Positions 29,862 to 57,470 of a DNA stretch of 64,000 nucleotides are shown here, one piece after another (within the stretch, counting starts at the first letter, position 1; every line of letters starts with the position of its first letter). The notes beneath the pieces were generated by a model. The model was not told the DNA's origin. It saw nothing but the letters and a program-made list of their open reading frames with translations, and ran no database searches. The stretch lies in NCBI RefSeq assembly GCF_024502345.1, contig NZ_JALDNN010000001.1. The stretch is one strand, 5' to 3'. The DNA comes from Escherichia coli. GTDB taxonomy: Bacteria > Pseudomonadota > Gammaproteobacteria > Enterobacterales > Enterobacteriaceae. The translations under genes were made by a program, and so were the position numbers.

Positions 29862-31087
<1,226 letters not shown>

Positions 31088-31091
<4 letters not shown>

Positions 31092-34725: not shown

Positions 34726-34786
34726 ATGTTATATTAGCTGGCCTATTTTAATTTATTGCGTGTCGGTAGTACAGTCTTTGCACAAA

Positions 34787-35116
34787 CTAATTTATGCAAT
34801 GGAAAAGCTGACGGCTCGGTTTGTGTTTTTCATTCGGGTAGACTCGCATTGCGGATGCACAAAGTGATGAAACCTGTCTTGCTATATTTTTACCGAAGTT
34901 AACAAGAAGGCCGTGCTTTATTTTTTCACCCTCTGCCCTGATGCTGATGATAAAGCTGAACTGATATACGATTACCTCAATGAGGTCATTGCCAAATGTT
35001 ATAATGGCGGCGTTGTTTATTTCATGTTCATAATCCCTCAGGTCAGTGTTAAGTCTTGCTGTTGCATCTACAAGTGCGTATTCTTTATCGATAATCATAA
35101 CTTTCTCACTTATCAT
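34787..35116 (-). CDS. Small hypothetical protein between the WYL regulator and the DUF262/DUF1524 gene
   Basis: ORF of 109 codons co-oriented with flanking genes; start uncertain (MISEKV or MIIDKEY); no family recognised. Confidence 0.3.
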   Translation of the reverse strand: MISEKVMIIDKEYALVDATARLNTDLRDYEHEINNAAIITFGNDLIEVIVYQFSFIISIRAEGEKIKHGLLVNFGKNIARQVSSLCASAMRVYPNEKHKPSRQLFHCIN

Positions 35117-35156
35117 GTTAATGTGATTTAATCATCACTAATAATATGTTGTGATT

Positions 35157-35870: not shown

Positions 35871-35871
35871 A

Positions 35872-35930
35872 CATCATTTCCGAATTTAGCCGGGAAATGA
35901 TGCCAGCAGTAGCGGACAGGATTTGTCCGC
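35872..35930. promoter_or_regulatory. Two inverted repeats immediately upstream of the WYL regulator start (candidate operators)
   Basis: catcatttcc-N11-ggaaatgatg at 35872-35902 and gcggaca-ggatt-tgtccgc at 35911-35929. Confidence 0.4.
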
Positions 35931-35972
35931 CCTCTGAAGTTTTTTAAAGTCTGAATACCTTAAATGTAAGTG

Positions 35973-36266
35973 CTAAACGTCAGTATTCTCAGGTGAATAA
36001 AGATGCTTCTGGCGCATGTAGGCAATAAAAATGCAGGATGGTAGCGTCACCCGGTATGCGGGACCGGCTAAATCAATCAGCAGCCAGAGAGAACTGAGCA
36101 CCCAGCCCACGGGACCGGCAAAAGCGCCCATGGTACGCGTCAGCATGGCATTTCCTGCAACGGTCAGCCCTCTGCCTAACAGGGCTTTCGCCACACCATT
36201 TGTGACAACAAGTGCCATCTGATAGGCCGCAAACCCGGATGTTTTAATCCCCGCCTGGATTGCCAT
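35973..36266 (-). CDS. Hypothetical membrane-associated protein; possibly the 3' half of a frameshifted gene
   Basis: 97-aa ORF starting 2 nt after the stop of the upstream ORF, different frame. Confidence 0.3.
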   Translation of the reverse strand: MAIQAGIKTSGFAAYQMALVVTNGVAKALLGRGLTVAGNAMLTRTMGAFAGPVGWVLSSLWLLIDLAGPAYRVTLPSCIFIAYMRQKHLYSPENTDV

Positions 36267-36268
36267 GG

Positions 36269-36589
36269 TCAGCAGCTCCGGCGTGGGATTGCTGTATCGC
36301 AGACGATACCGAGCAGGAGATACCAGCCATCATCAAGTGCGGTGACGTATTCCGGGTTAGCCAGTGCCACTGCCAGCAGCGGGTCTTCGGGGAGTGTGTC
36401 ATCGTGGTTGAGATGCCAGAGCAGGGTTCCCGTTTCGTTCCAGAAGGCGGTAAACAGGTCGATATCATCGACAGGGCCAAGGATTTCATTGCTGAGGGCC
36501 ACCAGTGCGGAGGCGGGCAGGTTGAGAAGGGGAAGACTGGTGGGAGTCGTGAGTTTAAACATGATTATCTCCATAAGTAATTGATTCAT
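36269..36589 (-). CDS. Hypothetical protein; possibly the 5' half of a frameshifted gene
   Basis: 106-aa ORF immediately upstream of 35973-36266 on the same strand. Confidence 0.3.
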   Translation of the reverse strand: MNQLLMEIIMFKLTTPTSLPLLNLPASALVALSNEILGPVDDIDLFTAFWNETGTLLWHLNHDDTLPEDPLLAVALANPEYVTALDDGWYLLLGIVCDTAIPRRSC

Positions 36590-37081
36590 ATTGATAATAT
36601 GTTTTCAAATGACTTTTAGTTACATTTTTTTTACGTTGTTTGCTTATTTTGGATTATGTCCTTAAATTTAGTAGTGGGCTGGCGTTAAATCCCGTTTTTT
36701 TTCCGATTTGCAGCATTTTGTAAGCAAATTAGCATGAGCTGTTTTAACTGAAAATGAGAGAAGGCTTGCGCACAATTGCTATTGATTTTCTTACTTATTT
36801 TCTCAATCACAAAACGCCTTAAATAGTTCAAAAAACAATCAACACCCCATAATCGATATTATTTATGGGGAGAAACGACGTTTAAGCCTGAAAGTGGGGG
36901 AGTGGCACTTTCAGGAGATTAAGGAGGCAAACAGGCCTCTTTAACGCGTGTTTTTCTCACCAAAATGTCAGAGTCGGTGATTTGCACTTCAGTATTTCTG
37001 CCAATACTATTCGCTCCATGTGCTGGCCAGCATCTAACTCAATACCCTTAATCTGTATTAATTGAGCGAGATGTATGCATT

Positions 37082-38404
37082 ATGAAACCCGATAGTTCTT
37101 TAAACCAAATAACGCAGACAATGAAACGGAATGATGTTGATTCTGTGGATAGTCGCTTTTTTGAGTCAGCGCAAAACATGAAAACCAGCGTTGACGTTGA
37201 AGATTGCTGCGTTGAAGTGATGGTTCGACATCACAGCCCAAAGAATCAAAGAGAGGCATTCACTAAAGCTTTTTTTGATGAGTGTAAAATCCGTGCAGTA
37301 CAAACTGGCCGGACTATCGAAGCCAGCGATACAAAATGTACCGGGCTTAAGGCTATATTCCACTCATCCGGACGCATTAAGTTTATTGTCCGCAAAAGTA
37401 TTCGCGGAAAGAATGTTTACGTTGCAGTAGGAAGTTACCCTGAATTTTCCATTAATAACGCAAGGGAACATGCCTTTAAAATAATTCAGGAGCTTAAGGC
37501 TTCCGTTGAGACTTATGGTGAGCGTTTTCTTACGCACAGCAAAATAACGTTTAATGAACTTGTGGAACAGTATGTGAAATGCGTACTTAACACGGGCGTT
37601 AAGCGTTCAGCTAACACCGACCTTTCTAAGATCCGTAAATACCTGCGCCCTCTTCTCGGTGACAAAAAGCTGGCAGGTATGACGGAGGCAGATGTTCTGA
37701 GCTATCTACACGATCTCGATCTTAAGCCTGCCACACGCAACCGCCACCTGGCGCTCATTAAAGCGGTCTTTACCTGGGCTATACGCATGGGATACACCAG
37801 CCGCTCTCCGGCGCTTTATATCAAAGCGCTGCCTGAAGTGACGTCAGATCGCCGCGCCATGGATGACTCCCAGCTTCAGCGCTGGATGGAAGTCTGTGAG
37901 TGCTGGCGTAATGGTAAACCCGATCATGAAGCCCTTGCTCTGCTCATGTTCCTTGCCCTGACGGGGCTGCGTCTGGGGGAAACCCGTCACCTTCGTCTTG
38001 AAGATGTGGACTGGAGCCGCAAGGTTATCACCCTTCGCCATACCAAAAACGGCAAACTCCGCCGTGTACCGGTATGTGATAAGGCTTTCGTTCTTCTGAC
38101 AGAACAGCGTCAGCATCTGGGTGATGAAGGCTGGGTATTTCCGGGCAAGGGGACCGACAATCCGGTTTCTGAGCCGCGTCGCCTGCAAAAACGGCTTTGT
38201 GAGGCTGCGGGTATTCCACCGTTCACCATCCATGAGATGCGCCATACCTTTGCGACAAAACTCATTGAGAGCGGGGCCGACATTCACACCGTCAAAGACT
38301 TACTGGGCCACAGCACTATCAAAGTGACGGAGCTTTACTTGCACGCTTCCCCGGCGCGTTACCACGAAGCTGTTAACCGGGCGATGAATGTTTTTCCGGC
38401 CTAA
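37082..38404 (+). CDS. Tyrosine site-specific recombinase / integrase (not P4-type)
   Basis: 440 aa; C-terminal catalytic signature ...FTIHEMRHTFATKLIESGADIHTVKDLLGHSTIKVTELYLH. Confidence 0.8.
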   Translation: MKPDSSLNQITQTMKRNDVDSVDSRFFESAQNMKTSVDVEDCCVEVMVRHHSPKNQREAFTKAFFDECKIRAVQTGRTIEASDTKCTGLKAIFHSSGRIKFIVRKSIRGKNVYVAVGSYPEFSINNAREHAFKIIQELKASVETYGERFLTHSKITFNELVEQYVKCVLNTGVKRSANTDLSKIRKYLRPLLGDKKLAGMTEADVLSYLHDLDLKPATRNRHLALIKAVFTWAIRMGYTSRSPALYIKALPEVTSDRRAMDDSQLQRWMEVCECWRNGKPDHEALALLMFLALTGLRLGETRHLRLEDVDWSRKVITLRHTKNGKLRRVPVCDKAFVLLTEQRQHLGDEGWVFPGKGTDNPVSEPRRLQKRLCEAAGIPPFTIHEMRHTFATKLIESGADIHTVKDLLGHSTIKVTELYLHASPARYHEAVNRAMNVFPA

Positions 38405-38476
38405 ACAGAATTCCCCCTCAGGCAAGTGAGTTCTGCGCTTTACTGCCTGTGGTTCACATTCAAAAGGAACCTGTAA

Positions 38477-39172
38477 ATGAATAATAAATCAACACCATCC
38501 CCCTTGACTACAACGACCCCCGCTCGTTTTGCCTGCAGGAAATTAAATGCATTTCTGGCTCGTCGTGCTCTTCATATGAAGGTGGTAAGAAAAAACCTGA
38601 ACAAGGCTGCTGCAATCGACATCGATCTCGATGACATTTCTAAGTGCGGATGCCGTGATGGTCTGCCTGAAGGCTTTGTCAATACTGCAAAAGGGCTTTT
38701 CTATTATGAAGGAAAAAAATGGTACCAGTTAAGCTCGACCCCCATTCTCCCTGTCTACAGGCATTATTCTGATTGTAAAACGCGCAATATGGGCGTCGAG
38801 TTGATGACTATCAACCATGCTGGAGAGTTCGCCTGTGCTGATGTCTCATTAAGTGATGCAATGGTAAAACCTGATCACGTCATGGCTTCTCTGGCGGGCA
38901 AAGGTTTTGGTATCTCCCTGACGATAAAGTCTAAAGAGCTTCTGGTGCAATTCTTACAGGTGTGTATGAAGAAATCGCTGGAATTGCCTACTTATCTTGT
39001 CGCAGATTCGATGGGTTTTGTGCCTGGCAACAAAGCATTTCTTCACGGCAGTATACCTATCGCGCAGCACCTTTTGGAATTTGACTATTTGATTCCGGCT
39101 TCCCGTGTTCCACGAGGGCTTGTCGAGTCGGGAACGCTGGATGACTGGAAAACGATGGTACCTGTGAAATGA
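38477..39172 (+). CDS. Hypothetical protein downstream of the integrase
   Basis: 231-aa ORF with AAGGA-type SD; 3' end overlaps convergent ORF 39085-39468. Confidence 0.4.
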   Translation: MNNKSTPSPLTTTTPARFACRKLNAFLARRALHMKVVRKNLNKAAAIDIDLDDISKCGCRDGLPEGFVNTAKGLFYYEGKKWYQLSSTPILPVYRHYSDCKTRNMGVELMTINHAGEFACADVSLSDAMVKPDHVMASLAGKGFGISLTIKSKELLVQFLQVCMKKSLELPTYLVADSMGFVPGNKAFLHGSIPIAQHLLEFDYLIPASRVPRGLVESGTLDDWKTMVPVK

Positions 39173-39577: not shown

Positions 39578-40228
39578 TTAACTGAGAGCGGGTAAGGACT
39601 GAATAAATCCCGGGTCTTCAACAAGACGACACAGACTGTCGTTACGCCGGAAAGTCTCCTGCAGGGGCTGAACCAGATGGATTTCATCCAGGGAGAATAC
39701 GGCGATATGTCCGTCGTGCTCTGCCACCAGATACCAGGCCTGCTGGTGGATAAGTAACCGGCAGGGAGCCAGCCGCTCACAGCGCTGCCCCTCGGCAATC
39801 AGAGTCACCCGCCTGCGCCCGGTAATGGCCTGAATCAGTCGCCAGAAAGACAATGCGCCTGATGGCGAAGGAGCCGGACTGGCGGGTGCGATTACGCAGG
39901 GAGACTCATCGCACATCAGCAGTGCGTTTACCAGACGACGGTCAAAGCCAGGGAAAAGACCGGCCATCCCGCTGCGGTGGGCAAAGATAAGCACGTCGGG
40001 CACCATCTGCGTCTCACTGCCCGCAGTGCGTAAGCGGTAATATCCGGACTGATACTCCAGGTCCAGATACATCAGCCGCTCACGAAAATCACGCCGCAGC
40101 GTGCGCACCGACACACCAAACTCAGCGGCAAGCTTACGCACACTCAGCGTTTCCCCTGCCACCAGACGGCTGATTATCAGTGACAGCCTGACAGCCAGCC
40201 GGTCATGGCGGCGTTCTGCCTGTGTCAT
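39578..40228 (-). CDS. HTH plus WYL-domain transcriptional regulator (YfjR-like), paralog of 35157-35870
   Basis: 216 aa; [28 protein letters not shown]; same architecture as the first WYL regulator. Confidence 0.7.
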
Positions 40229-43572: not shown

Positions 43573-44629
43573 GGCTTTGTTGAATAAATCGAACTTTTGC
43601 TGAGTTGAAGGATCAGATCACGTATCTTCCCGACAACGCAGACCGTTCCGTGGCAAAGCAAAAGTTCAAAATCACCAACTGGCCCACCTACAATAAAGCC
43701 CTCATCAACCGTGGCTCCATAACTTTCTGGCTGGATGATGAAGCTATTCAGGCCTGGTATGAGTCAGCAACACCTTCTTCACGAGGCAGACCTCAGCGCT
43801 ATTCTGACCTTGCCATCACGACTGTGCTGGTCATTAAACGCGTATTCAGGCTGACCCTGCGCGCTGCGCAGGGCTTTATTGATTCCATTTTTTCTCTGAT
43901 GAACGTTCCGCTACGCTGCCCGGATTACAGCTGTGTCAGCAGGCGGGCAAAGTCGGTTAATGTCAGTTTCAAAACGCCCACCCGGGGTGAAATCGCACAC
44001 CTGGTAATTGATTCCACCGGGCTGAAGGTCTTCGGTGAAGGCGAGTGGAAAGTCAAAAAGCATGGCCAGGAACGCCGCCGTATCTGGCGTAAGCTGCATC
44101 TCGCCGTTGACAGTAAAACACATGAAATCATCTGCGCTGACCTGTCGCTGAACAACGTTACGGACTCAGAGGCCTTCCCCGGGTTAATCCGGCAAACCCA
44201 CCGGAAAATCAGGTCAGCCGCCGCCGATGGCGCTTACGATACCCGGCTATGTCACGATGAACTGCGGCGTAAGAAAATCAGCGCGCTTATCCCTCCCCGA
44301 AAAGGTGCGGGTTACTGGCCCGGTGAATATGCAGACCGTAACCGTGCAGTGGCTAATCAGCGAATGACCGGGAGTAATGCGCGGTGGAAATGGACAACAG
44401 ATTACAACCGTCGCTCGATAGCGGAAACGGCGATGTACCGGGTAAAACAGCTGTTCGGGGGTTCACTGACACTGCGTGACTACGATGGTCAGGTTGCAGA
44501 GGCTATGGCCCTGGTACGAGCGCTGAACAAAATGACGAAAGCAGGTATGCCTGAAAGCGTGCGTATTGCCTGAAAACACAACCCGCTACGGGGGAGACTT
44601 ACCCGAAATCTGATTTATTCAACAAAGCC
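43573..44629 (+). mobile_element. IS903-group (IS5 family) insertion sequence, complete, 1057 bp, no target-site duplication
   Basis: Terminal inverted repeats GGCTTTGTTGAATAAATC at 43573-43590 and 44612-44629; flanking 9-mers tatctatgc vs actgtgttt differ. Confidence 0.9.
43605..44573 (+). CDS. IS903-type transposase
   Basis: 322-aa ORF MKDQITYLPDNADRSVAKQKFKITNWPTYNKALINRGSITFWLDDEAIQAWY... with DDE motif region. Confidence 0.9.
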   Translation: MKDQITYLPDNADRSVAKQKFKITNWPTYNKALINRGSITFWLDDEAIQAWYESATPSSRGRPQRYSDLAITTVLVIKRVFRLTLRAAQGFIDSIFSLMNVPLRCPDYSCVSRRAKSVNVSFKTPTRGEIAHLVIDSTGLKVFGEGEWKVKKHGQERRRIWRKLHLAVDSKTHEIICADLSLNNVTDSEAFPGLIRQTHRKIRSAAADGAYDTRLCHDELRRKKISALIPPRKGAGYWPGEYADRNRAVANQRMTGSNARWKWTTDYNRRSIAETAMYRVKQLFGGSLTLRDYDGQVAEAMALVRALNKMTKAGMPESVRIA

Positions 44630-45024
44630 ACTGTGTTTATCAAATTCCATGCCCTTTTTGCTGCTTAATTTTAAATGACACTCTGATCATGCACCGTGAT
44701 TGAAATAAGTTATAGCCACCCCTTAATCATTTTTTTCAGACGACATTAACTTCGGAGTAAATAATTTAACACAATGAAATATCAAACCGCATCTGGCCTG
44801 AATGTTGAGTATTAATACGTGACGGATTGTTAATATATATCAGTACATAAACCCCAATATTCCAGTAATACACACCTACACAATACACACCAAGCAATTT
44901 AGTCAGCATCACCCAACTAACATCCAACACAAACTCAATAAGCCAGATTTGATACCACCTAATTACCTCAACCATCGCGGGTAAGGTTCCGTCCTGCCCG
45001 ATATTCAGATCACAGGAATCTATT

Positions 45025-45636
45025 ATGCTTAATGATATTTATCTTGACCAACGTCATGCCCCATTCAATACAACGTATTTGCAACGGATGCTGGGTGTAA
45101 TTGATAACGCTATAGCACAACACCCAAGGACAATGGCTGTCCGTGTCGATCTACGTCTGCCTGATGACAACTGTAATAGGAATAGTGGTCTGATATCCCG
45201 TTTCATTGAATCGCTTAATGCAAAAATCGATGCTCGGTACCGAAATAAAATAAAGAATGGCATCAGGAGCTACCCATGCCAGTTGCGTTACGCCTGGGTT
45301 CGGGAAGTGGGAGAAATAAACGAGAAGTCCCATTACCACATGGTACTTTTCGTGAACAAAGACACATTCAATGGACTTGGGAGCTATGGAGAAGGGGGAA
45401 CGGGATTAGCCAGCCTGATACGTGAAGCCTGGCTGAGCGCTTTGCAACTAGGCCCTTACCCCGAATACCGAACGTTGGTCCACATCCCGGACAACCCATT
45501 GTATTACCTGGACGTCAATAATTTAGACTACAAAACGGTTTACGATAAACTCACTTTCAGGCTGAGTTATTTTGCGAAAGAGCGCACCAAGTCATACAGC
45601 CGAGATGAACGCTCGTTTGGCTGCAGTCAGTCCTGA
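45025..45636 (+). CDS. YagK/YfjJ-family protein (inovirus Gp2-like), CP4-type island backbone
   Basis: 203 aa; MLNDIYLDQRHAPFNTTYLQRM...YHMVLFVNKDTF pattern recalled for YfjJ/YagK. Confidence 0.55.
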   Translation: MLNDIYLDQRHAPFNTTYLQRMLGVIDNAIAQHPRTMAVRVDLRLPDDNCNRNSGLISRFIESLNAKIDARYRNKIKNGIRSYPCQLRYAWVREVGEINEKSHYHMVLFVNKDTFNGLGSYGEGGTGLASLIREAWLSALQLGPYPEYRTLVHIPDNPLYYLDVNNLDYKTVYDKLTFRLSYFAKERTKSYSRDERSFGCSQS

Positions 45637-45871
45637 GGCAAAACAAACTAAGTCTATAAAGATTTTTTCAGCCTGGCTCTAATCGACTGAATCTCAGCAT
45701 ACTCCGCTTTTGAAGCCTTGACACGTCAGTTGTTCTTTCACCTCTGAGTGGCTACTCGCGACTGCCTGCAGGAGACTGATTATGTTATTGACCGCAAAAT
45801 CCATTAACTGACTTTTCGACTTAATCTCCTTAAGTTATGTGAGAAATTTGCCGATATGAAAACATGATCCT

Positions 45872-45908
45872 CCAGTCGCTACTGACATGCCCTGTCAGTA
45901 GCGACTGG
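45872..45908. promoter_or_regulatory. Perfect 16-bp inverted repeat with 5-nt spacer upstream of the HTH gene fragment
   Basis: ccagtcgctactgaca-tgccc-tgtcagtagcgactgg, ~35 bp upstream of the ATG at 45942. Confidence 0.4.
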
Positions 45909-45941
45909 TAATCTCAAGGAAAAATTACAAGGAGAACGCGC

Positions 45942-46176
45942 ATGAGCGGGCATGAGGTAATGGTACAAAGAATAACCGCTATTATTGCAGAACTTTACCA
46001 GTACGGTTTTGTATCACGTAAGAAGATGATGGACGAATTCAACATCAGTGAGCGTACTTTGTATCGTGATCTTAATCGTCTGGGCGACAGAATCGTCCCC
46101 GATGGTGATGGTATTTACAGGCTGGCTCCCGCTTACGCTAAACCTCAGGCTCTAAAAGAACAACAAAATCTCGGCC
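45942..46176 (+). pseudogene. HTH (DeoR-like) regulator gene, 5' fragment (~78 codons), joined without IS to appC
   Basis: MSGHEVMVQRITAIIAELYQYGFVSRKKMMDEFNISERTLYRDLNRL; frame runs into appC sequence at ~46175. Confidence 0.45.
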
Positions 46177-47133
46177 ATGTTTATTATGGCGATCAGCGCC
46201 TGGTATTTACTGCGCGGACGGGAGCGCGATGTCGCATTACGCTCGTTTGCCATCGGTTCCGTCTTCGGTACTCTGGCGATTATTGGCACGCTGCAACTCG
46301 GAGACAGTTCTGCGTATGAAGTCGCGCAAGTACAACCGGTAAAACTGGCGGCGATGGAAGGGGAGTGGCAAACGGAACCTGCACCTGCACCGTTCCATGT
46401 GGTTGCCTGGCCGGAACAGGATCAAGAGCGTAACGCCTTTGCCATCAAAATTCCCGCGCTGCTAGGGATCCTCGCCACTCACTCATTAGATAAACCCGTG
46501 CCGGGTCTGAAGAATTTGATGGCTGAAACCTACCCACGCTTGCAACGCGGACGTATGGCCTGGCTGTTAATGCAGGAAATATCGCAAGGCAATCGTGAGC
46601 CGCATGTGTTGCAGGCATTCCGGGAACTGGAAGGTGACCTGGGCTACGGCATGTTGCTCTCCCGCTATGCGCCGGATATGAATCATGTCACAGCCGCACA
46701 GTACCAGGCGGCGATGCGTGGTGCAATACCTCAGGTTGCGCCGGTATTCTGGAGTTTCCGCATCATGGTGGGCTGTGGTTCCCTGCTGCTACTGGTGATG
46801 CTGATTGCGCTTGTCCAGACGCTGCGTGGCAAAATCGACCAGCATCGCTGGGTGCTGAAAATGGCGCTCTGGAGTTTGCCGTTGCCGTGGATTGCGATTG
46901 AAGCCGGGTGGTTTATGACCGAGTTTGGTCGTCAGCCGTGGGCGATACAGGACATCTTACCGACATACTCCGCGCACTCCGCCTTAACCACAGGACAACT
47001 GGCTTTCTCACTGATCATGATCGTAGGGCTTTACACCCTGTTCTTAATCGCCGAAGTCTACCTGATGCAGAAATATGCCCGTCTGGGGCCGAGCGCGATG
47101 CAGAGTGAACAACCGACGCAGCAACAGGGGTAA
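46177..47133 (+). pseudogene. appC: Cytochrome bd-II oxidase subunit I (AppC/CbdA), 3' portion only (~318 of ~514 codons)
   Basis: C-terminal AppC sequence ...WIAIEAGWFMTEFGRQPWAIQDILPTYSAHS...; N-terminal heme-binding half absent. Confidence 0.8.
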
Positions 47134-47144
47134 AGGAGAAAATC

Positions 47145-48281
47145 ATGTTTGATTATGAAACATTGCGCTTCATCTGGTGGCTGCTGATTGGCGTGATCCT
47201 GGTGGTCTTTATGATCTCCGACGGATTTGACATGGGGATCGGCTGTTTGCTGCCGCTGGTGGCGCGTAATGATGATGAACGCCGGATAGTGATTAATAGC
47301 GTTGGTGCGCACTGGGAAGGCAATCAGGTCTGGTTGATCCTCGCAGGTGGGGCATTATTTGCCGCCTGGCCCAGAGTGTATGCAGCGGCGTTTTCCGGCT
47401 TTTATGTGGCGATGATCCTGGTGCTGTGCTCGCTGTTCTTCCGCCCGCTGGCCTTTGATTATCGCGGAAAAATCGCCGATGCACGCTGGCGTAAAATGTG
47501 GGATGCCGGTCTGGTCATCGGCAGTCTGGTGCCGCCGGTAGTCTTCGGTATCGCCTTCGGCAACTTGTTGCTCGGCGTGCCGTTTGCCTTCACACCGCAA
47601 TTACGCGTGGAGTATCTCGGCAGCTTCTGGCAACTGCTGACGCCATTCCCTTTATTGTGCGGATTGCTCAGCCTTGGGATGGTGATTTTGCAAGGTGGCG
47701 TCTGGTTACAACTGAAAACTGTTGGTGTGATTCATCTGCGTTCACAGCTGGCGACTAAACGCGCTGCACTGTTGGTGATGCTGTGCTTTTTGCTGGCGGG
47801 TTACTGGCTGTGGGTCGGTATTGATGGCTTTGTACTGCTCGCCCAGGATGCTAACGGTCCTTCCAATCCGTTAATGAAACTGGTGGCAGTGCTACCTGGT
47901 GCCTGGATGAATAATTTTGTCGAGTCGCCCGTTTTGTGGATCTTCCCGCTACTGGGGTTCTTCTGCCCATTGCTGACGGTGATGGCGATTTATCGTGGTC
48001 GCCCGGGTTGGGGATTTTTGATGGCATCATTGATGCAATTTGGCGTGATTTTCACGGCAGGCATCACGCTGTTCCCCTTTGTCATGCCGTCAAGCGTGAG
48101 TCCAATCTCCAGCCTGACGTTGTGGGACAGCACTTCCAGTCAGCTGACGCTGAGTATTATGTTGGTAATCGTGCTGATATTTTTGCCCATTGTGTTGCTC
48201 TACACTCTCTGGAGCTACTACAAAATGTGGGGGCGCATGACGACAGAAACTCTCCGCCGTAACGAAAACGAGCTGTACTAA
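47145..48281 (+). CDS. appB: Cytochrome bd-II oxidase subunit II (AppB/CbdB)
   Basis: 378-aa membrane protein [33 protein letters not shown]... Confidence 0.9.
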
Positions 48282-48293
48282 GGAGCAGGAACA

Positions 48294-48386
48294 ATGTGGT
48301 ATTTACTTTGGTTCGTCGGCATTTTGTTGATGTGTTCGCTCTCCACCCTTGTGTTGGTATGGCTGGACCCGCGATTGAAAAGTTAA
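48294..48386 (+). CDS. appX: Cytochrome bd-II accessory small membrane protein AppX
   Basis: 30-codon ORF MWYLLWFVGILLMCSLSTLVLVWLDPRLKS with SD AGGAGCAGG upstream. Confidence 0.7.
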   Translation: MWYLLWFVGILLMCSLSTLVLVWLDPRLKS

Positions 48387-48465
48387 CGAACGTAAGTCTG
48401 ATGCGGCGCATTAGCGTCGTATCAGGCAATCAATAATGTCGGATATGAAAAGCGGAAACATATCG

Positions 48466-49764
48466 ATGAAAGCGATCTTGATCCCATTTTTATCTCTTCT
48501 GATTCCGTTAACCCCGCAATCTGCATTCGCTCAGAGTGAGCCGGAGCTGAAGCTGGAAAGTGTGGTGATTGTCAGTCGTCATGGTGTGCGTGCCCCAACC
48601 AAGGCCACGCAACTGATGCAGGATGTCACCCCAGACGCATGGCCAACCTGGCCGGTAAAACTGGGTTGGCTGACACCGCGCGGTGGTGAGCTAATCGCTT
48701 ATCTCGGACATTACCAACGCCAGCGTCTGGTAGCCGACGGATTGCTGACGAAAAAGGGCTGCCCGCAGCCTGGTCAGGTCGCGATTATTGCTGATGTCGA
48801 CGAGCGTACCCGTAAAACAGGCGAAGCCTTCGCCGCCGGGCTGGCACCTGACTGTGCAATAACCGTACATACCCAGGCAGATACGTCCAGTCCCGATCCG
48901 TTATTTAATCCTCTAAAAACTGGCGTTTGCCAACTGGATAACGCGAACGTGACTGACGCGATCCTCAGCAGGGCTGGAGGGTCAATTGCTGACTTTACCG
49001 GGCATCGGCAAACGGCGTTTCGCGAACTGGAACGGGTGCTTAATTTTCCGCAATCAAACTTGTGCCTTAACCGTGAGAAACAGGACGAAAGCTGTTCATT
49101 AACGCAGGCATTACCATCGGAACTCAAGGTGAGCGCCGACAATGTCTCATTAACCGGTGCGGTAAGCCTCGCATCAATGCTGACGGAGATATTTCTCCTG
49201 CAACAGGCACAGGGAATGCCGGAGCCGGGGTGGGGAAGGATCACTGATTCACACCAGTGGAACACGTTGCTAAGTTTGCATAACGCGCAATTTTATTTAC
49301 TACAACGCACGCCGGAGGTTGCCCGCAGCCGCGCCACCCCGTTGTTGGATTTGATCATGACAGCGTTGACGCCCCATCCACCGCAAAAACAGGCGTATGG
49401 TGTGATATTACCCACTTCAGTGCTGTTTATCGCCGGACACGATACTAATCTGGCAAATCTCGGCGGCGCACTGGAGCTCAACTGGACGCTTCCAGGTCAG
49501 CCGGATAACACGCCGCCAGGTGGTGAACTGGTGTTTGAACGCTGGCGTCGGCTAAGCGATAACAGCCAGTGGATTCAGGTTTCGCTGGTCTTCCAGACTT
49601 TACAGCAGATGCGTGATAAAACGCCGCTGTCATTAAATACGCCGCCCGGAGAGGTGAAACTGACCCTGGCAGGATGTGAAGAGCGAAATGCGCAGGGCAT
49701 GTGTTCGTTGGCCGGTTTTACGCAAATCGTGAATGAAGCACGCATACCGGCGTGCAGTTTGTAA
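48466..49764 (+). CDS. appA: Periplasmic acid phosphatase / phytase AppA
   Basis: 432 aa from MKAILIPFLSLLIPLTPQSAFA; histidine acid phosphatase motif RHGVRAP. Confidence 0.9.
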   Translation: MKAILIPFLSLLIPLTPQSAFAQSEPELKLESVVIVSRHGVRAPTKATQLMQDVTPDAWPTWPVKLGWLTPRGGELIAYLGHYQRQRLVADGLLTKKGCPQPGQVAIIADVDERTRKTGEAFAAGLAPDCAITVHTQADTSSPDPLFNPLKTGVCQLDNANVTDAILSRAGGSIADFTGHRQTAFRELERVLNFPQSNLCLNREKQDESCSLTQALPSELKVSADNVSLTGAVSLASMLTEIFLLQQAQGMPEPGWGRITDSHQWNTLLSLHNAQFYLLQRTPEVARSRATPLLDLIMTALTPHPPQKQAYGVILPTSVLFIAGHDTNLANLGGALELNWTLPGQPDNTPPGGELVFERWRRLSDNSQWIQVSLVFQTLQQMRDKTPLSLNTPPGEVKLTLAGCEERNAQGMCSLAGFTQIVNEARIPACSL

Positions 49765-49774
49765 TGCATAAAAA

Positions 49775-49800
49775 AGAGCATTCAGCTACCTGAATGCTCT
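49775..49800. terminator. Hairpin between convergent appA and etk ends
   Basis: Perfect 11-bp inverted repeat agagcattcag-ctac-ctgaatgctct. Confidence 0.45.
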
Positions 49801-49830
49801 GAGGCTGATGACAAACGAAGAACTGTCTAA

Positions 49831-49870
49831 TGCGTAGACCGGAAAAGGCGTTCACGCCGCATCCGGTCAC
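49831..49870. repeat. REP (repetitive extragenic palindromic) element
   Basis: tgcgtagaccggaaaaggcgttcacgccgcatccggtcac resembles the E. coli REP consensus. Confidence 0.5.
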
Positions 49871-49883
49871 TTTACCTTCAGTT

Positions 49884-50578
49884 TTACTCTTTCTCGGAGT
49901 AACTATAACCGTAATAGTTATAGCCGTAACTGTAAGCGGTGCTGGCGCGTTTAATCACACCATTGAGGATAGCGCCTTTAATATTGACGCCTGCCTGTTC
50001 CAGACGCTGCATTGACAAGCTCACCTCTTTGGCGGTGTTCAGGCCAAAACGCGCAACCAGCAGGCTGGTGCCGACAGAGCGCCCCACGACCGCAGCATCG
50101 CTCACCGCCAGCATCGGCGGCGTATCGACAATCACCAGATCGTAATGGTCGTTCGCCCATTCCAGTAATTGACGCATCCGATCGCGCATCAGCAGTTCAG
50201 ACGGGTTAGGTGGCATCTGACCGCGAGTAATCACATCAAAGCCTCCTTTGCCAAAATGCTGGATCACTTTGTTGAGCTCATCTTTACCTGCCAGATATTC
50301 CGACAAGCCATGTGCATTACTCACGGTAAACAGGTTATGCGAATAACCATGGCGTAAGTCGGCATCAATAAATAACACTTTTTGATCGGACTGGGCGATC
50401 ACCGCTGCCAGAGTTGAACTGACAAATGTTTTACCACTGTCTGGCGTCGCACCGGTGATCATCAGAATGTTATTCTCAGTCTCCATCATAGCGAAATGCA
50501 GACTGGTTCGTAGCGCACGTACGGCTTCCACAGCAGAATCCGCCGGGTTATCCACCGCCAGGAAGGGGATATTTTTAG
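49884..50578 (-). pseudogene. etk: Tyrosine-protein kinase Etk/Wzc family, C-terminal ~230 codons only; 5' part removed at the IS5 junction
   Basis: Walker A/B kinase domain (GATPDSGKTFVSSTLAAV, DLVIVDTPP) and Tyr-rich tail YSYGYNYYGYSYSEKE; reading frame runs into the IS5 end at 50579. Confidence 0.75.
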
Positions 50579-51773
<1,195 letters not shown>

Positions 51774-52368
51774 CAAGAGAACGCAACAGCGCACTTGCTT
51801 TGCCACAGTTGAATTTTGTGCCGTAACGATGTGCAAGCATGTAAGCATAAGGAGTCAAGGTATAGCGTGTTACTTAGTTACTCGGATTAACAATCCCAAC
51901 GTACAGAGCGGCGGATTTACAGAGTCAGCGCAGTCCCTGCTCCGGCAGTCAGTGGCAGGCGGCGTACTGAAGCAAACCATTATCGATACCGGCATCGGCG
52001 ATACCATCGGCATGCTGATGTCACACGGCAATATTTCTCCCTACATCATGGCGTGGTTGATAACCGTGCTGATCCGTCTGGCAACGGGTCAGGGCGTGGT
52101 CTCAGCCATGACGGCGGCGGGGATTATTAGCGCAGCAATCCTCGACCCGGCAACCGGTCAACTGGTGGGCGTCGACCCGGCGTTGCTGGTGCTGGCAACA
52201 GCGGCTGGCTCCAACACGCTGACCCATATCAACGATGCTTCGTTCTGGCTGTTCAAAGGCTACTTTGATCTGTCGGTGAAGGATACGCTGAAAACCTGGG
52301 GTCTGCTGGAGCTGGTAAACTCCGTGGTTGGCCTGATAATCGTGTTGATCATCAGCATGATTGCATAA
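51774..52368 (+). pseudogene. GntP-family permease, C-terminal fragment
   Basis: ...[44 protein letters not shown]...[27 protein letters not shown]; 5' boundary not resolved, upstream frame runs into IS5. Confidence 0.55.
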
Positions 52369-52417
52369 CGTTGATACCGCTCTGGCCCACAGCGCCAGAG
52401 CGGTTTTCCATCCTGCC

Positions 52418-53113
52418 TCAACAATCCTCAATAATCAGATATACCGCCTTCACCGGACCATGCACCCCAACCACCTTGATAAGCTCAATATCCGCCGTCG
52501 AGCTGGGTCCACTGATGATATTAATGCACGATGGCATACGCTCACCGGCCTGTGCTTTCTGATGCAGTTTTTCTGCCAGCTGCGCCACGCGCGGCAGGAT
52601 GGTGCTTTTACGCAGCACGAAAATAGAGGACTCCGGCAACAGGCTCAGGGAGCGCCCGCGCTCCGGTGCGGAAAACAGCACCACGCCGCCGGACTCGGTC
52701 AGGCCATATTCGGCATACACCACGCCGACTTTCGCCTGCTCGGCCTGGGTAATATTTTCGCTACCACGCGCCGGATCCCAGACCACGGCGTTGCATTCCT
52801 GCTGCAAGCGTTCGGTGATGCCCAGCTCCACCAGCCGGCTGTCGCCGCTCAGCACCACCGGCTGCTGACCCAATTCTTCGCACAGGCGCAGTGCCGCGTC
52901 TGCGGCCTGGTCCTCGCTGGTCAGTTCGCAGCGGGCCAGCATCACTTCGCTGGCAAACTGGATAAACGCAGAGCAGCGCTGCTCGGGGCTAAGCTCGGTC
53001 AGGCGCTCGTTGGCATAGTTGTTAACCGGTGCGGCATCCGCTTGCGGTTCGAAGCGCAGCGGGCGACCCAGCGCCTGGGCGATGGTGTTTAAAAACGCGG
53101 TACGGTTATCCAT
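52418..53113 (-). CDS. ykgG: LutC-like lactate utilization protein YkgG
   Basis: 231 aa from MDNRTAFLNTIAQALGRPL; overlaps ykgF stop. Confidence 0.85.
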   Translation of the reverse strand: MDNRTAFLNTIAQALGRPLRFEPQADAAPVNNYANERLTELSPEQRCSAFIQFASEVMLARCELTSEDQAADAALRLCEELGQQPVVLSGDSRLVELGITERLQQECNAVVWDPARGSENITQAEQAKVGVVYAEYGLTESGGVVLFSAPERGRSLSLLPESSIFVLRKSTILPRVAQLAEKLHQKAQAGERMPSCINIISGPSSTADIELIKVVGVHGPVKAVYLIIEDC

Positions 53114-54533
53114 TCTTTTTCTCCTGCGCCTGATGTTTCTTAAACCAGCTGCGGAAGCTCTCGCCGTCAGCATCAGGCAGATCGCGCGCCTCCATCCAGT
53201 CACCAATCGCGCCAACCTTGAGCGGGGTTTTGCCGCCATTGATAAACCAGCTCGCCGCATGCGCGCCCGCCATCATCCCGACTTTCCACAGCCCCGGATG
53301 GCTATTGGCATAGGCGAACATCTTGATCGCCCGTCGCTCGGCTTTCGGCGTAATGCCCTCCTCGGCCATCACCCGGCGATGACGCAGGATCAGTTTTGAC
53401 AACGGAATACGCACCGGGCAGACGCTGTCACAAGCCGTGCACAAAGAACAGGCGTACGGCAGGTCTTTAAAATCTTTATAGCCGCCGAGCAGCGGAGAAA
53501 TCACCGCGCCGATAGGGCCGGGATAGATAGAGCCATAGCCGTGCCCGCCGATGTGGCGGTACGCCGGACAGGTGTTCATACAGGCTCCGCAGCGGATGCA
53601 GCGCAGCACATCGCGAAACTCTGAGCCCAGCACCTGCGAGCGACCGTTATCGACAATCACCAGATGGAACTCTTCCGGTCCGTCAACGTTGTCCGCCTCA
53701 CGCGGGCCGGTCAGCCAGGTGTTGTAGCCCGTCAGACGTGCGCCCACGGCGCTGCGCGCCAGCATGGTAATCAGCACATCCACCTCGGCAAAGGTCGGCG
53801 CGATACGCTCCATGCCCATCACCGCAATGTGCGTTTTCGGTAGCGTGGTGCACATGCGCGCGTTGCCTTCGTTGGTCACCAGACACACCGAGCCGGTTTC
53901 CGCCACGGCAAAGTTACAGCCAGTAATACCGATTTCGGCACTGAGGAAATCCTCGCGGATCTTCTGACGAATGAACAAGGTCATAGCTTCCGGGGTTTCC
54001 GGGCCGTCGTACCCCAGACGTTCGTTCAGCACGCGGCGGATCTGGTAGCGATCTTTATGAATCGCCGGAACCACGACGTGCGAAGGCGGATCCTGATCCA
54101 ACTGCAGGATATATTCCCCGAGATCGGTTTCGATCACCTGGATTCCGGCATCCTGCAACACATGGTTGACGCTGATTTCTTCGGTCACCATCGACTTGGA
54201 CTTCACCACCTTCTGCGCATTTTTACTCTGCGCGACCTGCAAAATGTAGCGAGTGGCATCTTCTTTGGTTTTGGCGAAATAGACGTGTCCGCCGTTTTCC
54301 GTCACTTTCTCGGAGAGTTGGTACAGGTAAGCGTCGAGGTTGCTCAGAACGTGATCGCGGATCTGGCTGGCACGATCGCGCCATTCTTCCCAGTGGCCTA
54401 ACTCATCGACCATTTTTTGCCGATTCGCGCCGATACGCTCCTGCGCATTAGCCACGGCTTTGCGCATAATCGGATCTTCTATCTGCTGACGAATACGCAG
54501 TTTAAATTCTACATCGCTGGTTTTTATCGACAT
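53106..54533 (-). CDS. ykgF: LutB-like iron-sulfur lactate utilization protein YkgF
   Basis: 475 aa with two CxxCxxCxxxCP ferredoxin motifs. Confidence 0.85.
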   Translation of the reverse strand: MSIKTSDVEFKLRIRQQIEDPIMRKAVANAQERIGANRQKMVDELGHWEEWRDRASQIRDHVLSNLDAYLYQLSEKVTENGGHVYFAKTKEDATRYILQVAQSKNAQKVVKSKSMVTEEISVNHVLQDAGIQVIETDLGEYILQLDQDPPSHVVVPAIHKDRYQIRRVLNERLGYDGPETPEAMTLFIRQKIREDFLSAEIGITGCNFAVAETGSVCLVTNEGNARMCTTLPKTHIAVMGMERIAPTFAEVDVLITMLARSAVGARLTGYNTWLTGPREADNVDGPEEFHLVIVDNGRSQVLGSEFRDVLRCIRCGACMNTCPAYRHIGGHGYGSIYPGPIGAVISPLLGGYKDFKDLPYACSLCTACDSVCPVRIPLSKLILRHRRVMAEEGITPKAERRAIKMFAYANSHPGLWKVGMMAGAHAASWFINGGKTPLKVGAIGDWMEARDLPDADGESFRSWFKKHQAQEKKNG

Positions 54534-54543
54534 CTCTTTCCCC

Positions 54544-55263
54544 TCAGCGGCTCATCAGCACTTCAGCAATATGCATCACTTTGACCGGCTGGCCTTCCCG
54601 TTGCAGTCGACCGCCAATGTTCAGCAGGCAGCTAACGTCTGCGCCAATCAAAAATTCCGGCTTTGCGTCCATCAGATGTAATACTTTCTCTTTCACCATC
54701 TCACCGGATATCTCGGCCATCTTGACCGAGAACGTCCCGCCAAAGCCGCAACAGGTATCCTGATCGGCAAACGTCAACAGCTCCAGTCCGCGCACGTTTT
54801 TCAGCAGCGTAAGCGGCTCTTCCTTCACTCCCAGTTTGCGGGTCAGGCTACAGGAAGGATGATACACAGCGCGGCCCTGCAGGCTGGCACCAACGTCCAC
54901 CACACCCAGTTTGTTGACGATAAAGGAGGTGAGATCCTGCATACGCGCGGAAACTTTCTCAGCACGCAGCGCCCATTCCGGTTCATCGGCCAGATACGTC
55001 GGGTAGCTTTTAACCGCGTAGGTGCAGGAGCCCGCCGGGGAGATAATCGGATCGTCGTTGTCTTCCAGCGCGGCGATCAGGTTTTTCATCCCGGGGATCG
55101 CCTCTTTGATGTAACCGCTGTTGATGGCTGGCTGACCGCAACACCCTTGCTTCTCGGGGAAATTAACGCGACAACCCAGTTTTTCCAGCAGCAATACGGA
55201 GTCTCGTGCCATCCGTGATTTCAGTGCGTCACCAATACAGGTGACAAAGAAATTTACATTCAC
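54544..55263 (-). CDS. ykgE: LutA-like Fe-S oxidoreductase YkgE (cysteine-rich domain)
   Basis: 239 aa MNVNFFVTCIGDALKSRMARDSVLLLEKLGCRV... with CCG motifs. Confidence 0.85.
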   Translation of the reverse strand: MNVNFFVTCIGDALKSRMARDSVLLLEKLGCRVNFPEKQGCCGQPAINSGYIKEAIPGMKNLIAALEDNDDPIISPAGSCTYAVKSYPTYLADEPEWALRAEKVSARMQDLTSFIVNKLGVVDVGASLQGRAVYHPSCSLTRKLGVKEEPLTLLKNVRGLELLTFADQDTCCGFGGTFSVKMAEISGEMVKEKVLHLMDAKPEFLIGADVSCLLNIGGRLQREGQPVKVMHIAEVLMSR

Positions 55264-55337
55264 AATAACTACTCCATTGCTTCATTTCTGTTTATTGCGC
55301 TTGATATCGCGATATCAAACAAATGTTCATTCGTATT

Positions 55338-57035
55338 TCATGCCCAGTTTTTATGTTTGCTGGTTTTACCAATACCTGGGTTCATAGTGTTGGTCGGATC
55401 ATTTTCCTGATAAAAACGTGCCAAATTTTCCGGCGCTTTATACAGATGGCCGACATTGTGTTCCGCCGGATATTGCGCTCCGCGTTGGCGCAGTAATTCC
55501 AGCATCTGTTCTTTTAACGCGTGGGCATCTACGCCTTTTTTAACGATATAATCCTGATGGAATACATGGCACATAAAATGGCCGTAATAGAGTTTATGCA
55601 CCAACTGACTGTCAATTTCCGCCGGTAAATGCTCATACCATTCGGTATCATTGCGGCGTAATGCAATATCCAGCGCGAGAATATCCTCAACCTCGTCAGA
55701 ATGAACGGCCTGATAACGAATGGCAGCACCCGCGGCGGCAAAACGATGCAGAAACGCCTTACTGCCCTCTTCCGCGGTACAGGTAAAGAACGCGCCCTCG
55801 GCCGATTTAAAATAGTCCGTTAACCATGCCTGGGCTTCGGCCACACCCTCACCGGACATTTTCAACATCAGATGGTGTTCATAGTTATCGCGCCAGGTCT
55901 TCATCCGCGCCGGGAGATGGCTCGGGAACAGATGGCTAAAAGCCTGCATCGCGCGGTCGGTAAAGTGCGGGCGAAAGATCTTCACCTTCTCAAGTATGGC
56001 CTCGGTACGCCCCTTCAGGTTGAAGAAGAACGGCATTTTGTCCGTGCCAAGTTTGTCGATCATCAGGAAGGTATCTTTGCTGTATTTCTCTGCAATATCA
56101 TAGATATCGCGGTGCATATACTCCCCAGCAACCGGCAGGTTTGTAAAATTCGCCAGGATGTGGCGGCGAATCTCAGTCAGGACATCAGTCTGATTGGTAC
56201 CGATATAAAAGACCTGCTGGTTCTTCTCGGCTTCAAAGGTATCCAGACGTACGGCAAACACCGCTAACTTGCCCGCACAGCCAGAGGATTCAAACAGGCG
56301 ATCCGGGTCAGCGTTGTAACGTGCTGGCGTGTCGGCATTGATGTCCCGCACGCGGCTAACATAGTCGTGATCGTGCGCGTGACGCCCGTCATGGTTGACG
56401 AGCACGGCTTCAATCGCATTGTTATCCAGCCGGGCAAGGATTTGCTCTGGCGTCTGACCTAGCTCAATGCCGAGGTGATTGACCAGCTGCAAGCGTCCCT
56501 GTTCATCAATACGGGCAAACAGCGACATCTCGGTATAAGCCGGGCCACGCTGGACCAGAGAACCGCCGGAGTTATTACAGATACCGCCGATAACCGACGC
56601 GCCGATGCACGAAGAGCCAATCACCGAATGCGGCTCACGGCCAAACGGCTTCAGCGCCTTTTCCAGCGAATACAGCGTGGTGCCCGGATAAGCCAGCACC
56701 TGCTTACCCTCATCCAGCACATGCAGACTGTCCAGCCGCAGCGTGCTGATAATGACGATCTCGCGGTCGTAATCATTACCATTGGGCGTCGAACCCTCAG
56801 TCAGGCCAGTGTTCGACGCCTGCATCAGGATTATTTTATCGGCCTCAACGCAGGCGCTAAGGACTTTCCAGAGTTCAAGCAAAGAGCCGGGGATAACCAC
56901 CGCCAGAGCATCACCCTGACCCGAGCGAAAACCCTTACGGTAACGCGCAGTTTTTGACGGTTCGGTGAGGATATGAGCAGGGCCAACCAATTGGGTAAGA
57001 GTTGTCAAAAAGGTCTTATTATCAGTATGTTTCAT
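55338..57035 (-). CDS. FAD-dependent D-lactate dehydrogenase, Dld paralog
   Basis: ~565 aa from MKHTDNKTFLTTLTQLVGPAHILTEPSKTARYRKGFRSGQGDALAVV; ORF-track start at 57083 is probably an extension. Confidence 0.8.
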   Translation of the reverse strand: MKHTDNKTFLTTLTQLVGPAHILTEPSKTARYRKGFRSGQGDALAVVIPGSLLELWKVLSACVEADKIILMQASNTGLTEGSTPNGNDYDREIVIISTLRLDSLHVLDEGKQVLAYPGTTLYSLEKALKPFGREPHSVIGSSCIGASVIGGICNNSGGSLVQRGPAYTEMSLFARIDEQGRLQLVNHLGIELGQTPEQILARLDNNAIEAVLVNHDGRHAHDHDYVSRVRDINADTPARYNADPDRLFESSGCAGKLAVFAVRLDTFEAEKNQQVFYIGTNQTDVLTEIRRHILANFTNLPVAGEYMHRDIYDIAEKYSKDTFLMIDKLGTDKMPFFFNLKGRTEAILEKVKIFRPHFTDRAMQAFSHLFPSHLPARMKTWRDNYEHHLMLKMSGEGVAEAQAWLTDYFKSAEGAFFTCTAEEGSKAFLHRFAAAGAAIRYQAVHSDEVEDILALDIALRRNDTEWYEHLPAEIDSQLVHKLYYGHFMCHVFHQDYIVKKGVDAHALKEQMLELLRQRGAQYPAEHNVGHLYKAPENLARFYQENDPTNTMNPGIGKTSKHKNWA

Positions 57036-57470
57036 GGAGGGCGGCTCTCCGCTCCTTATATCAGGGCCAGTGAAAATGGCCATAAGTTCATTTGTACGAC
57101 AAAACAGAATATTCCCTCAATCAATATCCACATGCAATACCCCATTTTATTTCTTTCGGCACCGCTCACATTTTTTAATGAAATTACCACTACCACATAA
57201 TTCATACTCCGTTCTTTTACTGGATGCCAAAACGCTTATTTCATTTATTGCAAAGACCATTTCATACCTATTAATGATTAACTCTAATGGGTATTATTAT
57301 ATTTAGTGGTTATTCATGTTTAATAAAAAAATAACATTATTTATACAATTATTAACCTTTGTAACTTTATTTCACTGAAGCGATTCAGTTTGCATTTTTT
57401 ATTTTATTATTAAGGTAGCCTCCTTCCCCCTAAATATAGTTAAGTCTAAAAAAGTAAATCGGGAATTGTA

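Follow-up and report, generated by a model that had tools for sequence, protein, structure and literature searches.

A blunt join between truncated WYL-regulator and appC genes marks a probably captured core-chromosome fragment in an Escherichia coli island

INTRODUCTION

In a 64,000-nucleotide stretch of Escherichia coli DNA (hereafter, the window), the beginning of a gene for a helix-turn-helix (HTH) regulator runs into the latter part of appC, which encodes subunit I of cytochrome bd-II, and appB, cbdX (appX) and appA follow. A reading made from the sequence alone (the sequence-only reading) took this arrangement as a gene fusion that either connects the phytase gene appA to an island promoter or marks loss of the oxidase. 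The locus thus raises the questions of what the junction encodes, whether the oxidase is lost, and how the two genes came to be joined.

RESULTS

The join is blunt and lies between positions 46172 and 46173

The features of the locus are as follows.

45025–45636, + strand: intact island gene of the Gp2 inovirus/YagK-YfjJ family, upstream of the truncated regulator gene (ORF; RefSeq annotation of the identical gene in G3/10 and AMSCJX03)
45872–45908, no strand: perfect inverted repeat with arms 45872–45887 and 45893–45908 (16-nt arms, 100% complementary, 5-nt spacer)
45942–46172, + strand: 5′ 231 nt (77 codons) of a WYL-domain HTH regulator gene (alignment to Z226-5 and PSJ-29; Pfam; PADLOC WYL model)
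45942–46319, + strand: chimeric ORF of 77 regulator codons and 48 out-of-frame codons (ORF list, alignment)
46172/46173, no strand: breakpoint, blunt illegitimate join (three-way alignment and megablast)
46173–47133, + strand: appC remnant, K-12 appC nt 585–1545, AppC residues 196/197–514 (alignment; RefSeq annotation of relatives)
47145–48281, + strand: intact appB, protein identical to K-12 AppB, 16 synonymous differences (K-12 comparison)
48294–48386, + strand: intact cbdX (appX), protein identical to that of K-12 (K-12 comparison)
48466–49764, + strand: intact appA (acid phosphatase/phytase), 5 amino-acid differences from K-12 (K-12 comparison)
49884–50578, − strand: etk remnant, 3′ 695 nt of 2181, cut by IS5 (comparison; incomplete tyrosine autokinase in the G3/10 RefSeq annotation)
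50579–51773, − strand: IS5/ISKpn26-like element at the right end of the app fragment (flanks TTAG and CAAG)

An IS-free junction had been proposed at ~46175. Such a junction exists, and megablast together with a base-by-base alignment, in which the partners were the Z226-5 island with its intact regulator gene and K-12 hyaF-appC, puts the breakpoint exactly between 46172 and 46173. The island regulator gene contributes its initial 231 nt (77 codons) on the left of the join, and appC continues on the right from K-12 nt 585, which is the third base in codon 195. Specifically, the island match ends with ...AAAATCTC and the appC match begins with GGCCATG..., and the three-way alignment of island, window and K-12 contains no base common to both parents at the join, that is, no microhomology. 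Island DNA abuts appC directly, with no IS end, IS remnant or repeat at the breakpoint in the alignment of the join. When positions 45640–46700 were searched by megablast against 5426 complete E. coli genomes, the appC match started at query position 534 (position 46173) in more than 5400 genomes, and the regulator-side half of the query found matches in only 19.

The junction encodes no fusion protein and leaves a truncated AppC

The alignment and the ORF list show that the regulator frame is offset by one base from that of appC. After the 77 regulator codons, it runs through 48 unrelated codons supplied by appC DNA and stops at 46319, so that the HTH frame does not, as had been claimed, pass directly into AppC. 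Because the two frames are out of register, no HTH-AppC fusion protein is encoded. The chimeric ORF is predicted to be a non-functional remnant; its equivalent is annotated by RefSeq as an incomplete pseudogene in most of the genomes that carry the junction.

In the island copy, appC begins only at nt 585, and neither the preceding 584 nt nor the gene's own upstream region is present. The remaining AppC ORF (46177–47133) covers residues 197–514, the C-terminal 318 residues, and the alignment finds only this part in the window copy, not a full-length AppC of ~514 residues with its N-terminal helices. In particular, transmembrane helices 1–5 are missing, and K-12 AppC residues H19, E99 and H186, of which H19 and H186 are haem ligands, all fall in the missing part. 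The loss of the N-terminal ~200 residues and of the native promoter, noted from the sequence alone, is therefore true of the island copy, from which the first 196 residues are missing. No Shine-Dalgarno sequence was found before the internal ATG at 46177 (Met197), and in relatives RefSeq annotates the equivalent gene as 'cytochrome ubiquinol oxidase subunit I, incomplete, missing N-terminus'.

The downstream genes appB, cbdX and appA are intact in the window, as had also been stated, and show no decay, which could reflect either a recent event or selection on appA. We infer that the junction makes nothing useful and that its products are inert; the only plausibly active leftovers would be the spare appB and cbdX and, especially, appA.

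The app fragment reads as a foreign extra copy in an island

The window fragment is collinear with the native K-12 appCBXA (cbdAB-appA) operon from appC nt 585 to etk, with 98.4% identity. Missing from the island fragment are the initial 584 nt of appC and the appC promoter region, which is under AppY/ArcA control in the native operon. Furthermore, the native operon lies downstream of hyaF, whereas the window fragment lies in an island adjoining the glc region. The left part of the window is chromosomal (glcDEFGBA and neighbours), and it is followed by island DNA with type I restriction-modification genes, an integrase and CP4-like genes. The 64-kb window contains no tRNA gene, and no integrase lies next to the module formed by the regulator remnant and the app fragment; the edge of the island thus either falls beyond the window or has been eroded.

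The whole arrangement of the window has no match in any of the 5426 complete genomes. The junction itself, identified by an identical 40-mer or 32-mer, is present in 16 of them and in six metagenome contigs assembled in different projects, the longest of 173 kb; three of these contigs run past the window's IS5 site. A blunt join without homology between unrelated genes is what a chimeric assembly of two unrelated loci would look like; the recurrence of the same junction in 16 independently sequenced complete genomes and six metagenome contigs refutes an assembly artefact, to which we assign practically no probability.

Could the fragment instead be the strain's only app operon, in which a deletion destroyed AppC and the oxidase was lost? 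In favour of this, the window contains no other appC and no hya genes. Against it, the fragment lies beside glc-region island DNA and not between hyaF and etk, and all 16 junction genomes have a further appC match elsewhere, at a second appC–etk place. Specifically, in 15 of the 16 the regulator half of the query matches at one place and the combined query at two; the exception, G3/10, has two copies of the whole module and gives three and four places, respectively. A 4.4-kb app-fragment query likewise finds a second place in 12 of 12 junction genomes among the matches listed. The native loci were located by stepping along two genomes, AMSCJX03 and G3/10. AMSCJX03 has an intact hyaABCDEF-appC(1545 nt, 514 aa)-appB-cbdX-appA-etk at 2.83 Mb, and G3/10 has an intact appC-appB-cbdX-appA-etk next to hyaF at 3.13 Mb, in each case ~2 Mb from the junction. 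The native hyaB of G3/10 is interrupted by IS30.

Sequence divergence separates the island copies from the resident ones. The window fragment (46173–50578) is 98.37–98.41% identical (~1.6% divergence) to the resident copies of K-12, AMSCJX03 and G3/10, compared with 99.2–99.98% for the other complete-genome island copies examined and 98.7–99.6% for three metagenome contigs. The best native locus in the search of 5426 complete genomes reaches 99.5% among the matches listed. In the two relatives inspected, an intact native locus thus coexists with an island allele that is distinct from the resident allele and common to the island copies. Because the fragment diverges by ~1.6% from resident copies and matches island copies more closely, it reads as a foreign extra copy, island cargo from another E. 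coli lineage; for the window itself, whose native hya-app locus lies beyond the 64 kb, island membership and second-copy status are deduced from its near-identical relatives.

The same evidence (the 1.6% divergence, the second appC–etk place in 16 of 16 junction genomes, and the intact native operon in the two inspected) makes it very unlikely that the fragment is the only app operon, and the proposed loss of the oxidase is unsupported. The native operon is a separate locus, undamaged in the two relatives examined, so that the usual site almost certainly still encodes the oxidase and leaves the host's cytochrome bd-II unaffected.

A second copy could also have arisen by a recent segmental duplication within the genome that placed the host's app-etk region in the island. 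In favour of such a duplication, the island and native Etk and Etp proteins of AMSCJX03 are identical and its two 11.4-kb copies are 99.2% identical, which shows exchange between the copies. Against it, over the 4.4 kb, the window differs at 66–67 positions from the native copies of AMSCJX03 and G3/10, versus 1 from the main (second) island copy of G3/10 and 27 from the AMSCJX03 island copy, and the same junction is found in three different tRNA-region contexts in different strains. Against these observations, such a duplication has only a slim chance of being correct, and a foreign extra copy remains the preferred reading.

The island occurs at several integration contexts and carries a core-chromosome block

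AMSCJX03 and OY754834 show the longer form of the island, which stands next to tRNA-Phe and an integrase. The order in both is tRNA-Phe, integrase, IS903-like element, gfcA-E, etp, etk, appA, cbdX, appB, appC′, HTH′ and Gp2, and OY754834 has an IS1 and a truncated gene between the integrase and the IS903-like element. The AMSCJX03 island is collinear with that genome's own native locus over 11,449 bp, from appC′ to gfcA, and the match ends ~46 bp past the native IS1 site, at the terminus of the IS903-like element. The block therefore includes the complete group-4-capsule operon gfcABCDE-etp-etk in addition to appA, cbdX and appB. In A30, the module lies in a thrW island beside tRNA-Thr next to proA, and the nearest annotated integrase is ~21 kb away, on the island's other side. 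In CAVP773, the module adjoins setC-nlpA, where selC islands usually lie, and the integration site is probably selC.

The surroundings are those of CP4-6/CP4-57 islands, which have the same neighbours (YagK/YfjJ (Gp2), a YfjR-like WYL protein, a GTPase, DUF932, an antirestriction protein, CbtA/YafW and DUF4942), and the module's relatives likewise have an integrase and tRNA-Phe or tRNA-Thr nearby. As in other mosaic CP4-type islands, there is heavy traffic of IS1, IS5, IS30 and IS903, and, as in mosaic E. coli islands generally, there are truncated pseudogenes; RefSeq flags both halves of the junction as incomplete. The junction is in this respect an ordinary pseudogene or deletion scar in a mosaic tRNA-associated island, a product of ordinary island decay. 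Unlike CP4-type accessory cargo, the cargo here is, in its long form, an 11.4-kb core-chromosome block (appC′-appB-cbdX-appA-etk-etp-gfcEDCBA) from another lineage, which gives the host a partial second copy of core genes. A literature search found no relevant description of a second app/etk copy in an island.

An IS5 joint and later deletions have eroded the module

In the window, the block is cut short by the IS5 element at 50579–51773, which joins etk′ to a truncated gluconate-permease gene. The element has no target duplication, and its non-matching flanks (TTAG and CAAG) identify it as a recombination or deletion joint and not a simple insertion. The etk′-IS5 joint occurs only in 11–12 junction-bearing genomes among the 5426 searched, and none of the 5426 has IS5 in a native etk at the etk′ site.

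Other copies have decayed in other ways. In A30, a 366-bp deletion with ~8–9 bp of microhomology (GCTGATTG) fuses appC′ to appB; CAVP773 and OY754834 have the same 1689-nt 'appB' CDS as A30, which points to the same deletion in both. The extra module copy of G3/10 (copy 1) is interrupted by IS30, and its appB and appA are frameshifted.

A single capture event is the preferred account of the junction

We consider it highly probable, taking the account as a whole, that a single illegitimate, homology-independent recombination within a tRNA-associated CP4-57/CP4-6-like island left the scar. The ancestral island would have carried the WYL/HTH regulator gene and its inverted-repeat operator in front of PDC-M09, which is a PADLOC candidate defence system and not a validated one. 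In this event, no less than 11.4 kb of core chromosome from another lineage would have taken the place of the defence genes and of the 3′ three-quarters of the regulator gene. The captured block would run from appC nt 585 through appB, cbdX, appA, etk and etp to gfcEDCBA, its far end abutting the IS903-like element; that end was presumably anchored at the IS903-like element and the other joined illegitimately. The island would then have spread horizontally to at least three contexts (pheV, thrW and a setC-adjacent site, probably selC), and a later IS5/ISKpn26 event in the window's version would have deleted gfc and etp together with two-thirds of etk.

The identity of the junction across genomes, metagenome contigs and several contexts suggests that the block was captured once and that the island then spread horizontally. 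The mechanism of capture is a reconstruction, since no donor genome with an intermediate structure and no native etk::IS5 was found among the 5426 genomes. It resembles homology-facilitated illegitimate recombination or IS-anchored capture in that one end of the block abuts an IS (the IS903-like element of the long version) and the second end is joined without one. Classical cases of homology-facilitated illegitimate recombination have 3–10 bp of microhomology at the illegitimate end, as opposed to 0 bp at 46172/46173, and here neither donor nor intermediate was found.

Other routes were considered and rejected. Tandem duplication by IS5-IS5 recombination is incompatible with a native etk that is intact in AMSCJX03 and G3/10 and with an etk′-IS5 joint restricted to island copies. 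IS1-bounded capture fails because the AMSCJX03 island copy continues 46 bp past the IS1 site, through intergenic DNA, to the IS903-like end. IS-mediated adjacent deletion and microhomology-mediated deletion would have left, respectively, an IS end or remnant and shared bases at 46172/46173, where there are none.

The inverted repeat is a candidate operator of the lost WYL regulator

The intact form of the regulator gene is found in Z226-5 and PSJ-29, where it measures 879 nt (292 aa). Pfam places HTH_DeoR/HTH_11 at residues 10–47, WYL at 123–174 and WCX at 209–279, and PADLOC finds PDC-M09A (E-value 1e-120) and PDC-M09B (E-value 1e-214) after the gene in both genomes.

A perfect 16-bp palindrome had been reported just upstream of the junction. 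The perfect 16-nt arms are real, but they are separated by 5 nt, so that the element is a spaced inverted repeat and not a contiguous palindrome. It is part of the upstream DNA that is native to the regulator gene, 34 nt before the ATG, and is kept in islands that carry the intact regulator gene, as the alignment shows. No other perfect inverted repeat in the 64 kb combines arms of 12 nt or more with a loop of 10 nt or less, and among 20 shuffled sequences, 19 contained no such repeat and one contained a single one. No further occurrence of the arm sequence was found in the window. No T-run follows the repeat on either strand, indicating that it is not a typical intrinsic terminator.

The repeat is most likely a candidate operator of the WYL regulator, a reading that rests on the analogous layout of BrxR-type genes, in which an inverted repeat with a 5-bp spacer lies upstream of the WYL regulator gene. 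BrxR-type WYL regulators repress their own promoter and defence islands through inverted repeats with a 5-bp spacer located between promoter and gene (Picton et al. 2022, PMC9122601). Like BrxR and CapW, the intact homologue of the window regulator has three domains (HTH-WYL-WCX) and lies directly upstream of a candidate defence system (PDC-M09), and here, too, an inverted repeat with a 5-bp spacer stands between the presumed promoter and the gene. The BrxR arms measure 11 nt versus 16 nt here, where the operator role is putative. Furthermore, the intact homologue has no detectable sequence similarity to BrxR or CapW (phmmer against PDB chains, with E up to 10, gave no meaningful match, BrxR and CapW included), and the window keeps only 77 residues of it.

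Transcription from the regulator promoter into appA looks unlikely

The junction could, in principle, place appB-cbdX-appA under the island regulator promoter, with loss of the autorepressor giving a derepressed second phytase copy. Several features fit this possibility: the window still has the candidate operator and the DNA upstream of the regulator gene, BrxR-type regulators repress their own promoter through repeats of this kind, and the remnant consists only of the first 77 residues, which makes it shorter than the BrxR wHTH domain (94 residues) and leaves it without a dimerisation domain. In addition, the window appA is intact, and there is no convincing intrinsic terminator between 45942 and appA, where the only terminator-like sites on the + strand are 5-pair stems inside appB, no commoner than in shuffled sequence.

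Other features speak against it. The promoter scan found no sigma-70-like promoter above threshold upstream of the HTH gene, and three plasmid homologues of the regulator (31–40% identity) have no comparable upstream repeat. The frames are unfused and no Shine-Dalgarno sequence precedes 46177, which would leave ~830 nt untranslated between the stop at 46319 and appB. Long untranslated RNA normally invites Rho-dependent polarity, and a stretch of this length would favour it here, against expression of the downstream genes. Finally, appC′/appB have decayed further in three relatives, and appB and appA are frameshifted in G3/10 copy 1, which argues against selection on an appB-cbdX-appA transcription unit. 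We therefore regard transcription from the regulator promoter into appB-cbdX-appA as unlikely.

The appA gene has its own minor promoter besides the appC (cyx) promoter; Atlung and Brondsted reportedly treated the appA promoters in 1994. This minor promoter would be a more likely route than the regulator promoter for any expression of the spare appA. For regulation of the operon, the reference list of PMC10057817 includes Atlung & Brondsted 1994 and Brondsted & Atlung 1996.

DISCUSSION

The junction itself matters little, as it is a non-coding scar. The locus calls for caution in a more general way: a core gene that appears truncated in a limited window may be a xenologous island copy and not a loss of function. 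As a unique breakpoint, the junction is also a means to trace the capture across 16 genomes, six metagenome contigs and three integration contexts.

What is less ordinary is its cargo, a block of core chromosome with appA and the whole group-4-capsule operon. Insertions of IS1 or IS5 are frequent in native gfc promoters, as in the AMSCJX03 and G3/10 loci. Tentatively, and as a proposal that we hold to be rather unlikely, a CP4-like island family may carry the captured 11.4-kb core block between E. coli strains and tRNA sites (pheV, thrW and probably selC) and so supply a second capsule locus and a second phytase, with the WYL/appC junction as the fixed marker of a single capture; the island gfc would then perhaps be the only uninterrupted one in some hosts, and the window appA might be transcribed from a repressor-less WYL promoter.

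A strain that carries the uneroded version possesses a second gfc-etp-etk capsule locus and a second appA. This doubling could affect capsule or phytase phenotypes, and it could confuse read mapping and allele typing.

Insertion sequences left and right of the junction

Left of the point where the truncated WYL/HTH regulator gene (HTH') joins appC', the window carries an IS903-like element in place of a 348-bp stretch, which is present in G3/10 and in metagenome contigs and there includes a 207-nt AlpA-like HTH gene. This element shares 93.7% identity with the IS903-like element bounding the gfcA end of the foreign appC'-to-gfcA cargo in AMSCJX03. At the right end of the app fragment, an IS5/ISKpn26 element connects the remnant of etk with an N-terminally truncated gluconate-permease gene.

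43575-44630: IS903-like (IS5-family) element, with a transposase ORF at 43605-44573 (322 aa)
50579-52368: IS5/ISKpn26 element and the gene joined to it, with non-matching flanks (TTAG and CAAG)

Because these flanks differ, and because this IS5 continues into other DNA (RelE/HTH genes) in the other module copy of G3/10, the sequence indicates that IS5/ISKpn26 is a recombination joint here.

Module copies and secondary decay in relatives

The whole Gp2'-HTH'-appC'-appB-appA-etk'-IS5 module is present twice in G3/10, at a distance of ~39 kb.

L007:18656-26354 and L001:19386-26066: the two module copies in G3/10
L010:15153-15168: appC'-appB deletion site in A30

In the first copy, IS1 truncates the left end, IS30 lies between appB and appA, and both of these genes are frameshifted. 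In A30, short direct repeats (GCTGATTG) bound a secondary deletion of 366 bp that fused the appC remnant to appB, and the resulting 562-aa ORF, which RefSeq names 'appB', is the same CDS in CAVP773 and OY754834.

The native gfc locus also bears insertions in the cspH-gfcA intergenic region, with IS1 in AMSCJX03 and ISKpn26 in G3/10.

L006:30020-30787: native cspH-gfcA intergenic region, AMSCJX03
L008:28265-29245: native cspH-gfcA intergenic region, G3/10

Because of these insertions, the resident gfc capsule operon may be promoter-disrupted in both strains. The island gfc copy of AMSCJX03 carries the IS903-like element at a point other than the native IS1 site.

Other gene content of the window

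An island-borne lactate-utilisation cluster (52400-59100) encodes LutC/YkgG, YkgF and YkgE homologues, a D-lactate dehydrogenase (dld) and a permease for L-lactate. Beyond it lie IS1 (~59221-59994), regulators of the TetR and HTH types, a diguanylate cyclase and an AI-2E transporter; the gene names follow the annotation of a 99.96% identical G3/10 stretch. Directly upstream of the glc operon (4674-8786, minus strand) lies a sphingolipid-type pair, matching serine palmitoyltransferase (NF047599, 599 bits, over the curated cut-off) and fatty acyl-AMP ligase (NF006624, 874 bits); to our knowledge, such a pair is no textbook feature of E. coli K-12. Many E. coli carry, at other positions, islands ~95-96% identical to the region 26000-39000, which holds a type I restriction-modification system (hsdR/M/S) and DUF262/GmrSD-like and integrase genes. 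The window's overall arrangement was found in none of the complete genomes of the collection (5426 E. coli).

WYL regulators and a candidate defence block

In Z226-5 and PSJ-29, the intact WYL regulator gene stands first in a block of four, ahead of PDC-M09A, PDC-M09B and a gene whose 840-aa product gives weak PDC-M09B/CARF-like matches.

L003:8303-14065: intact-regulator block, Z226-5 (also L004, PSJ-29)
39578-40228, minus strand: second, paralogous WYL/YfjR-like regulator gene of the window, in conserved CP4-like backbone

The four-gene block is a candidate phage-defence system, which the capture of appC would have deleted. The second, paralogous regulator of the window could, in principle, cross-regulate the putative orphaned operator, an inverted repeat at 45872-45908.
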